Shown one piece after another: positions 46,953-49,353 of a stretch of 64,000 bases of DNA. Both the position numbers and the translations under genes were made by a program. Source of the stretch: Escherichia coli (GTDB lineage Bacteria > Pseudomonadota > Gammaproteobacteria > Enterobacterales > Enterobacteriaceae); the NCBI RefSeq assembly GCF_044324785.1, contig NZ_CP172127.1; one strand, written 5' to 3'. Position 1 is the first letter of the stretch. Each line of letters opens with the position of its first letter. Under the pieces are notes generated by a model, which was not told where the DNA came from, did no database searches, and worked only from the letters and a program-made list of their open reading frames with translations.

Positions 46953-47201
46953 ATGGGCATTCTGTCATGGATTATTTTTGGGCTTATTGCCGGTATTCTG
47001 GCGAAGTGGATCATGCCAGGTAAAGATGGTGGTGGATTCTTTATGACTATCCTGCTGGGGATAGTCGGTGCCGTAGTCGGCGGATGGATCAGCACGCTGT
47101 TTGGCTTTGGTAAAGTCGATGGCTTCAATTTTGGCAGCTTCGTGGTTGCCGTTATTGGCGCGATTGTCGTGCTGTTTATCTACAGAAAGATTAAAAGTTA
47201 A
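46953..47201 (+). CDS. yeaQ: GlsB/YeaQ/YmgE-family small membrane protein YeaQ
   Basis: 82-aa ORF MGILSWIIFGLIAGILAKWIMPGKDGGGFFMTILLGIVGAVVGGWISTLFGF... Confidence 0.85.
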   Translation: MGILSWIIFGLIAGILAKWIMPGKDGGGFFMTILLGIVGAVVGGWISTLFGFGKVDGFNFGSFVVAVIGAIVVLFIYRKIKS

Positions 47202-47259: not shown

Positions 47260-47334
47260 TTACCACCATCCCAGCTCAGTGCCGAGTACGACAATAATCG
47301 CCACACCCATCATAATAATCGTTGTTTTTTTCAT
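47260..47334 (-). CDS. yoaJ: Tiny hydrophobic protein YoaJ (24 aa)
   Basis: Hand translation of minus strand MKKTTIIMMGVAIIVVLGTELGWW; start 2 nt after the yoaK stop. Confidence 0.7.
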   Translation of the reverse strand: MKKTTIIMMGVAIIVVLGTELGWW

Positions 47335-47336
47335 CT

Positions 47337-47435
47337 TTATGCTCCCGGGGCAGCATAGCCGCCAATAAAAAACCATGCTAAAAATACGACCGCTGTAATA
47401 AAGATTACAACCGGAAAAATAATACCGATTCGCAT
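47337..47435 (-). CDS. yoaK: Tiny hydrophobic protein YoaK (32 aa)
   Basis: Hand translation of minus strand MRIGIIFPVVIFITAVVFLAWFFIGGYAAPGA; sits between dgcP and yoaJ on the same strand. Confidence 0.7.
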   Translation of the reverse strand: MRIGIIFPVVIFITAVVFLAWFFIGGYAAPGA

Positions 47436-47467
47436 GTTATCACCAATCAAAAGGATGTGAATACGCC

Positions 47468-48493
47468 TCAGGAATGTAGCGCTGGATGCGCGACAAAAGG
47501 GGTTTTCTGTTTGTGTTTTTTCTCCTGATACATCGCGATATCGGCAGCATGCAGGGCACTGTCTGCATCGGTCGTTTCAGGATCGACTTCTACTATGCCA
47601 AGACTGGCACCGGGATAATACAAATCAACATCACCTAAGTGATATTCTCCACGTATTTGCTGTTGAATACGTTCTCGCAGCGACGAAATATCCGCATTCT
47701 CGTTGTTCAGTGAAACAACCAAAAACTCATCACCGCCGAGACGACCAATAACTTCGCCATTTTGCTGGAGCGTATTAAGGCGCTCGCCAACCTGAATGAG
47801 GAACAAATCACCACTATTATGACCAAAACGATCGTTGATTAATTTGAAGTTATCCAGATCGATAAACGCGATCATTATCTTATGGTTAAGATGTCGGGCG
47901 AGAGAAAACAGCGTCGTCAGGTTTTCAAAAATCGCCCGCCGATTCGGTAGCCCGGTTAACGAGTCGGTATACGATTGCGCAATCAGCGCAGCATTGGCTT
48001 CGCGCAGCTGTTCTACCAGCGCCTCTTTTTGAATATATTGTGCAATCAGTCCGGCGAATAACTGCAAAACCTGTTCCGCGCGTTCACTCCACTGGCGCTT
48101 CTCACTACTGGCGGCGCAAAGCGTGCCATAGAATGATCCATCCGGTAAGTGAATTGGCGTGCTCAGAAATGTGGTGATGCCAAGATTGCGTGCCGCAATA
48201 CAGTCGCCCCAACGGTCAGGGACTTCATCGCTGAAAAAGCAGTTTTCATCAATGGCGCGTTTGCATAACGAGTAATCCCACGAGACGGTAAAATTCTCCG
48301 GGATGTGCATTTTCTGGCTGTTACGGGCAAACATAATATGCTGCAGGCGCGCTTCGACATCCACTTTGGTCAGGTAGGTTGATTCCATATCAGTGACCAT
48401 TTCCAGCATCTCCAGAAGCTGTCGGACCAGGCTTTCCAGTGACTGTTCTTTGGCAAGGGATTGCGAGACGCGGGCGATAATCTGATCTGACAC
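47468..48493 (-). CDS. dgcP: Diguanylate cyclase DgcP (YeaP), GAF-GGDEF; GTG start
   Basis: Track ORF 47468..48622 trimmed to GTG-initiated (M)SDQIIARVSQSLAKEQSLESLVRQLLEML... (341 aa); GGDEF active-site motif RLGGDEF present. Confidence 0.85.
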   Translation of the reverse strand: MSDQIIARVSQSLAKEQSLESLVRQLLEMLEMVTDMESTYLTKVDVEARLQHIMFARNSQKMHIPENFTVSWDYSLCKRAIDENCFFSDEVPDRWGDCIAARNLGITTFLSTPIHLPDGSFYGTLCAASSEKRQWSERAEQVLQLFAGLIAQYIQKEALVEQLREANAALIAQSYTDSLTGLPNRRAIFENLTTLFSLARHLNHKIMIAFIDLDNFKLINDRFGHNSGDLFLIQVGERLNTLQQNGEVIGRLGGDEFLVVSLNNENADISSLRERIQQQIRGEYHLGDVDLYYPGASLGIVEVDPETTDADSALHAADIAMYQEKKHKQKTPFVAHPALHS

Positions 48494-48675
48494 GAAACAA
48501 CTCCAGGATACGGCGGGTAAATGCTGATTATTTAATCTTTGCAGGCATGATAAAACATCATCAACAAAGATGAAACAAGGCGTAATATGATTTGAGTGAA
48601 TGTAATAAAAATAGTGCTGCAAAACAAAACGATACCGCGATACTCTAAGCCTGGATAAATATGTGAGATCAATAA

Positions 48676-48930
48676 ATGAAAATTATCAGTTTTGTTCTGC
48701 CTTGCTTGCTGGTTCTGGCTGGTTGTTCAACCTCTTCTCAGCCAGAAGCACCTAAACCGCCGCAGATTGGTATGGCAAATCCGGCGTCGGTCTATTGCCA
48801 GCAGAAGGGCGGGACGCTCATTCCAGTGCAGACAGCGCAAGGGGTCAGCAACAATTGCAAATTACCGGGCGGTGAAACGATTGATGAATGGGCATTGTGG
48901 CGACGGGACCATCCGGCTGGTGAAAAATAA
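48676..48930 (+). CDS. yoaF: DUF333 lipoprotein YoaF
   Basis: 84-aa ORF with lipobox (LAGC) MKIISFVLPCLLVLAGCSTSSQPEAPKPPQIGMANPASVYCQQKGG... Confidence 0.8.
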   Translation: MKIISFVLPCLLVLAGCSTSSQPEAPKPPQIGMANPASVYCQQKGGTLIPVQTAQGVSNNCKLPGGETIDEWALWRRDHPAGEK

Positions 48931-48951
48931 CCGCCGGATGCTGTACTAAAA

Positions 48952-49299
48952 TCACAAGCTACGTAGCCAGTCGGCCAGCACCAGCGCATGGTTCTGCGTG
49001 GTGTTTTTTGCTGAGTAGAGCAGGGTCAGCGGCTGTTTTTTGGCGATGTCCGCCAGCCGCTTTCCTTCTTGCTCGTGTTGCGCCAGTTCTGCAAGATATT
49101 GCTCGCGAAAGGTTGCAAAATCGACGACTTCGCCGTGAAAGGCTTTGCGCAGTTCCGTTGACGGCGTGATTTCTTTATCCCACTCATCAAGGGCTAAATC
49201 GGTTTTTTTGATACCACGCGGCCAGAGGCGGTCGACCAGTACGCGATAACCATCGCTCTGTTCTGCCGGATCATAAACGCGTTTGCACTGAATATTCAT
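48952..49299 (-). CDS. yeaO: DUF488 protein YeaO
   Basis: Track ORF 48952..49320 trimmed to MNIQCKRVYDPAEQSDGYRVLVDRLWPRGIKK... (115 aa). Confidence 0.8.
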   Translation of the reverse strand: MNIQCKRVYDPAEQSDGYRVLVDRLWPRGIKKTDLALDEWDKEITPSTELRKAFHGEVVDFATFREQYLAELAQHEQEGKRLADIAKKQPLTLLYSAKNTTQNHALVLADWLRSL

Positions 49300-49353
49300 C
49301 GTGTTTGTTCTCCCTTCCACGCATGATTGGTCACGTCACTATAGCACCGGATA

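Follow-up and report, generated by a model that had tools for sequence, protein, structure and literature searches.

The diguanylate cyclase gene dgcP very probably begins at the GTG codon at positions 48493–48491 (minus strand) of the window, the 64-kb stretch of Escherichia coli DNA analysed here, and the 43 codons upstream of it are promoter and leader DNA whose frame is open by chance. A start codon and a Shine-Dalgarno sequence are conserved at this site, the coding signature runs from there, and the codon is placed on the mRNA as a translation start should be. We propose that transcription would start at around 48540 from a sigma-70-type promoter (-10 hexamer TATCAT, 48552–48547) in the 182-bp yoaF-dgcP intergenic region, and that a 47-nt leader would bring a GGAG Shine-Dalgarno sequence 7 nt upstream of the GTG, at which translation would begin with formyl-Met. 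The 43 codons from the TTG at 48622 to the GTG would then be AT-rich, non-coding DNA, open by chance. The case for GTG as the site actually used is very strong; it stays an inference because our literature search found neither an N-terminal peptide nor an initiation-profiling footprint for dgcP.

The dgcP locus and its reading frame

The minus strand between 47468 and 48622 is occupied by a single long ORF in the ORF list of the window. Since its translation carries GAF and GGDEF domains and its matches in E. coli genomes are annotated as dgcP, we identified the locus as E. coli dgcP (formerly yeaP, b1794). The 1.5-kb region is matched in 5,417 of 5,426 complete E. coli genomes at 95–99.4% identity, and the features annotated beneath this match are dgcP, yoaF, yoaK and yoaJ. 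Comparison with the RefSeq feature tables reveals the gene order of the DgcP/YeaP orthologous group, with yoaF (48676–48930, plus strand) divergent upstream across the intergenic region, yoaK and yoaJ readable downstream, and yeaQ (46953–47201, plus strand) convergent; the yoaF and yeaQ ORFs listed for the window match those tables. DgcP of E. coli K-12 (YeaP, b1794; NP_416308.4) shares the neighbourhood of yeaO, yoaF, dgcP, yoaK, yoaJ and yeaQ, and its 1026-nt CDS has the same boundaries and the same GTG start. DNA identity to K-12 is 97.9% over 1.5 kb, and the differences are only allelic and leave the structure unchanged; two bases before the GTG, for example, the window has T where K-12 has C.

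The dgcP CDS (47468–48493, minus strand) spans 1026 nt, comprising 341 codons and a TGA stop read from the sequence at 47470–47468, the same extent as the RefSeq CDS. The GTG is followed by TCA GAT CAG ATT ATC, the beginning of SDQIIARVSQ. A preliminary description of this DNA had proposed that dgcP most likely initiates at the GTG at 48491–48493, giving a 341-aa product that starts (M)SDQIIARVSQ. The product is confirmed in the sequence, and the proposed start is supported by RefSeq, by the start codons of orthologs, by the Shine-Dalgarno sequence, by substitution bias and by the transcription start site. The same description had assigned the longer track ORF an ATG start that adds 43 residues. 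Its length holds, as the longest mechanical ORF (47468–48622) encodes 384 aa and exceeds the 341-aa form by 43 codons, but its first codon is TTG (48622–48620; 1877586 in MG1655) and not ATG.

This TTG is the sole in-frame ATG, GTG or TTG between the upstream stop and the GTG, and reading of the whole extension found no in-frame ATG. The 129-nt extension (48494–48622, minus strand) would, on our reading, be spurious as coding sequence; in translation it runs MQHYFYYIHSNH...SWSCF and contains the peptide MQHYFYYIHSNHITPCFIFVDDVLSCLQR. Its GC fraction is 0.349, close to the 0.352 of the whole yoaF-dgcP intergenic region, compared with 0.486 for the CDS. An alternative, that translation starts at the TTG and that the real product has 384 aa, draws on the open frame: counted back from the GTG, it runs for 63 codons altogether in the window, in K-12 and in other E. 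coli. Against this, mononucleotide shuffling of the 189 nt upstream produces an open frame of at least 43 codons in 8.7% of cases; the open frame is thus unremarkable and needs no special explanation. The intergenic composition of the extension likewise counts against a TTG start, as does the lack of any Pfam domain over residues 1–43 of the 384-aa form and of any PDB homolog for them.

Annotation and public records

We mapped RefSeq feature tables onto the window and found dgcP at exactly 48493–47468, encoding 341 aa, in strains A10, XL1-Blue and MG1655 (in the last, NC_000913.3 1877715..1878740, NP_416308.4). RefSeq thus places the gene at these coordinates in genomes of 99.4% and 97.9% identity. 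In an exact-sequence look-up, the 341-aa sequence is public as 'MULTISPECIES: diguanylate cyclase DgcP' and occurs on at least 1000 contigs. The protein is nearly identical to the named RefSeq DgcP protein, which places it in the DgcP/YeaP orthologous group of Enterobacteriaceae. NCBIfam holds no DgcP-specific model and hence gives no help in fixing the N-terminus.

Deposited records also speak for the TTG start. The same kind of look-up recovered the exact 384-aa form on 9 contigs (BAG77489.1, CBG34786.1, CDL25242.1, EDV60748.1), for which E. coli 042 and E. coli B7A are the source names. The sequences in BAG77489.1, CBG34786.1 and EDV60748.1 are identical to the longest-ORF translation of the window. 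These older GenBank records took the first possible start, the TTG; the GTG 43 codons downstream is the start in RefSeq/PGAP and in the comparative data. The 384-aa form survives only in a few old GenBank records, and the track behind the preliminary description most likely came from such a record or from a longest-ORF rule. The GTG start is the standard reference annotation and was already known; our analysis is a confirmation and not a new proposal. What it bears on is annotation hygiene only. Cloning, tagging or modelling DgcP from a 384-aa record would add 43 spurious residues, and the 384-aa 'ORF' would take in the promoter of dgcP itself. There is no new biology here, as the reference annotations use GTG already.

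A start discrepancy like that of dgcP is seen at the neighbouring yeaO (48952–49320, minus strand). Its mechanical ORF runs from a GTG at 49320 and encodes 122 aa (MEGRTNTMNIQ...), and RefSeq has yeaO as 348 nt and 115 aa from the ATG at 49299 (MNIQCKRVY...).

Comparison of orthologous loci

We compared 26 orthologous loci, taken from a scan with one genome per species. All 26, drawn from six named genera, carry a start codon at the position equivalent to the GTG: the codon is GTG in every Escherichia and ATG in Citrobacter, Enterobacter, Lelliottia, Pseudenterobacter, Kosakonia and Ca. Symbiopectobacterium. A GGAG-type Shine-Dalgarno sequence precedes it by 7–10 nt in 26/26 loci, and the GGAG column is conserved across genera. 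From this codon, ORFs of 337–342 aa extend in 25 of the 26 loci. The exception is Enterobacter sp. EA-1 (locus L028, 1201–1332), in which only about 21 conserved residues are read before the frame is lost, with a stop at codon 44; this locus is either a frameshifted pseudogene or a sequencing error. Protein conservation begins at the GTG-equivalent codon, as MSDxI(L/I)ARVS..., and is kept across the six named genera.

Upstream of this codon the picture is different. The 43 codons read in frame give translations that are unrelated between genera, with stops in many loci. Four loci from divergent Escherichia genomes have no start codon in the upstream frame and a stop 13–20 codons upstream: L004 (Escherichia sp. 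E1V33), L005 (E. albertii), L007 (E. whittamii) and L026 ('E. coli' E69). A 1-nt insertion at about -27 is found in L004, L007 and L026, and +1/-2 indels in L005. These indels are not multiples of three and would therefore break a frame from the TTG to the GTG. The TTG and the open frame are kept in the sampled E. coli sensu stricto, and also in loci L003 and L006.

The substitution pattern changes at the GTG. For 8 Escherichia sequences, we sorted the variable columns of the alignment by codon position. The first 150 nt from the GTG (+1 to +150) have 4/1/33 variable columns at positions 1/2/3 (p = 2e-11), and the 129-nt extension has 13/18/10 (p = 0.30). Thus, the third-position bias sets in at the GTG, and codon periodicity is absent from the extension. 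Among 7 E. coli strains, all three SNPs in the extension would be non-synonymous. From these alignments, the extension appears to show no sign of selection as a peptide. The frameshifting indels, the stops and the missing start codon in other Escherichia genomes, together with the absent periodicity, stand against the TTG start, and the comparative data largely refute it.

The same alignments bear on an alternative in which the start lies further downstream, at the ATG of codon 29 or 32 (48409 or 48400), and the first 28–31 codons belong to the leader. The ATG at codon 32 has CTGGAG 9 nt upstream, with an anti-Shine-Dalgarno duplex of -6.4 kcal/mol, slightly better than that of the GTG, and the Pfam GAF match starts only at residue 17. 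Codons 2–28 alone, however, carry variable columns of 1/1/17 at positions 1/2/3 (p = 1.4e-6), the sequence is conserved from residue 1 onward across the six named genera, and at codon 1 every locus has a start codon, preceded by a conserved Shine-Dalgarno sequence of its own. The AlphaFold model of the 384-aa form also predicts a helix over residues 42–58 (384-aa numbering), at low confidence. A downstream start is very unlikely.

Several loci differ around or within dgcP. Loci L010–L022 (Enterobacter, Lelliottia and Pseudenterobacter) share an inverted repeat, ATGCAGA...TCTGCAT, about 15–45 nt upstream of the start and directly before a GGGAG Shine-Dalgarno sequence; this repeat is absent from Escherichia and could form a leader hairpin. 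The same loci contain an ATG 14 codons upstream, which is in frame except in L016. In E. coli SW070919 (L030, 1788–2560) an IS1A element adjoins the upstream side of dgcP and is flanked by yeaH on the other, and the intervening genes, yoaF included, appear to have been deleted. The -10 hexamer TATCAT is interrupted by the IS1 junction, and the 341-aa CDS is intact and annotated. The annotation of E. coli O157:H7 EDL933 (L033) lists dgcP as a pseudogene containing an internal stop, and in strain EF7-18-51 (H13) the gene is split by an IS1 insertion.

Ribosome binding and the transcription start

The Shine-Dalgarno sequence GGAG (48501–48504, minus strand), read directly from the sequence, is separated from the GTG by a 7-nt spacer. 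Its predicted duplex with the anti-Shine-Dalgarno sequence has an energy of -5.9 kcal/mol at the GTG, compared with -3.0 kcal/mol at the TTG and a background mean of -2.4 kcal/mol; no Shine-Dalgarno sequence is present at the TTG, a further point against initiation there. The leader and the first 33 coding nucleotides fold more weakly than shuffled controls (z = +1.57), which fits an accessible initiation region of a typical kind. Our Rfam scan of 47300–49000 yielded nothing credible, the lone match, to RsmY, reaching 15 bits where the gathering score is 57.

For K-12, one transcription start site (TSS) of yeaP has been published, with a 47-nt 5' UTR and 2 reads (Kim et al. 2012, PLoS Genet, Table S1; PMC3415461). 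The 51-nt promoter string given there maps to 48590–48540 of the window with two mismatches between K-12 and the window, both far upstream. The TSS thereby falls on the A at 48540, and the 47-nt untranslated leader occupies 48494–48540 (minus strand). A strict sigma-70 consensus scan of 48400–48760 returned no promoter, so the -10 hexamer was located from the published TSS instead. It is TATCAT (48547–48552, minus strand), which matches TATAAT at 5/6 positions and lies 6 nt upstream of the TSS. The block is conserved across genera, reading TATCAT or TATTAT in Escherichia and Citrobacter and TACTAT in Enterobacter. A promoter of the sigma-70 type agrees with the findings of Sarenko et al. (2017; PMC5635695), who report vegetative (RpoD) control of DgcP and relatively strong expression in every growth phase. 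Sigma-S dependence of dgcP was also considered and was dropped in view of their report.

Relative to the published TSS, the TTG is 82 nt further upstream and is therefore absent from that mRNA. We treated the TSS as corroborating and not decisive, because it rests on 2 reads from K-12 and because the strict promoter scan was empty. The Cappable-seq supplements hold no coordinates in the dgcP range, and the tetracycline ribosome-profiling supplements have no entry for yeaP or b1794. Taking the deposited records and the open frame together with the evidence against them, we consider translation from the TTG in place of the GTG to be extremely unlikely.

The use of both starts is another alternative. 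The GTG would then be the main start, and a minor 384-aa isoform would arise from upstream transcripts, for example by yeaO read-through across the antisense strand of yoaF. Retention of the TTG and its frame across the sampled E. coli sensu stricto is compatible with this, and the TSS evidence is one low-count dataset. The points raised against the TTG start apply here too; all three intraspecific SNPs are non-synonymous, and the extension is lost in sister species. We regard dual initiation as highly improbable. There is equally little chance that, in E. coli sensu stricto, rare transcripts that begin upstream or read through give rise to a low-abundance 384-aa isoform, whose N-terminal tail would be hydrophobic and rich in aromatic residues. 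If they did, the tail might alter localisation or GAF signalling. Initiation at the GTG alone remains our preferred reading.

Other features of transcription were seen at the locus. Just downstream of the TSS, the leader contains the motif AAAT(N2-3)TCAGCA (48520–48540, minus strand), which is conserved from Escherichia to Enterobacter between flanks that cannot be aligned, and which may be a regulatory site. Within the GAF-coding region of dgcP, Kim et al. (2012, Table S1) give an antisense TSS, assigned to yoaF with a 628-nt UTR; its promoter string ends at 48048 (plus strand). The same table has a sense TSS within the 3' part of dgcP, at about 47608 (minus strand), assigned to yoaK with a 173-nt UTR and 3 reads.

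Domain architecture of DgcP

The product is a GAF-GGDEF protein, in line with the preliminary description, and both domains were matched in Pfam above their cut-offs. The GAF sensor domain (48029–48445, minus strand) covers residues 17–155 of the 341-aa form, or 60–198 of the 384-aa form, and scores 41.6 bits for GAF_2 (PF13185, cut-off 28.6, E = 1.7e-10) and 36.5 bits for GAF (PF01590, cut-off 22.4). An N-terminal GAF domain above the gathering threshold marks DgcP as a GAF-domain sensor protein. The GGDEF catalytic domain (47504–47971, minus strand; residues 175–330) scores 140 bits against a cut-off of 23.8 (PF00990, E = 7.5e-41) with nearly the full profile covered, as is expected of a diguanylate cyclase. 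The active-site motif is intact (RLGGDEFLV; GGDEF at residues 253–257, 47723–47737, minus strand), and its residues G296, G297, D298, E299 and F300 (384-aa numbering) are invariant in 26 sequences.

The PDB contains no solved DgcP structure and no match that covers the 43-residue extension. Structures of TpbB/YfiN (7a7e), PleD (1w25) and DgcZ (3tvk/4h54) have GGDEF domains homologous to that of DgcP (E = 1e-13 to 3e-23, over about residues 200–375 in 384-aa numbering) but differ from it in their N-terminal sensor modules. In the AlphaFold model of the 384-aa form, pLDDT is below 50 for residues 1–59. This range takes in the extension, for which there is no alignment depth, as well as 16 genuine residues at the start of the 341-aa form, so that the model favours neither start.

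We also looked at the inhibitory site, an RxxD motif that we take to be expected five residues upstream of GGDEF, as in PleD. At residues 244–252 (47738–47764, minus strand; context QQNGEVIGRLGGDEF), DgcP has QNGE at the position of RxxD, and because of this it appears, on its primary structure, to lack a canonical I-site.

With its 341 residues, DgcP is a cytoplasmic diguanylate cyclase of the GAF-GGDEF type, and its activity is known from the literature. YeaP is among the diguanylate cyclases with verified activity, and deletion of dgcP in strain CFT073 reduces biofilm, which is rescued by WspR (PMC3484386). In S. flexneri, dgcP raises a c-di-GMP reporter, and a GG-to-AA mutant does not (PMC11327459).
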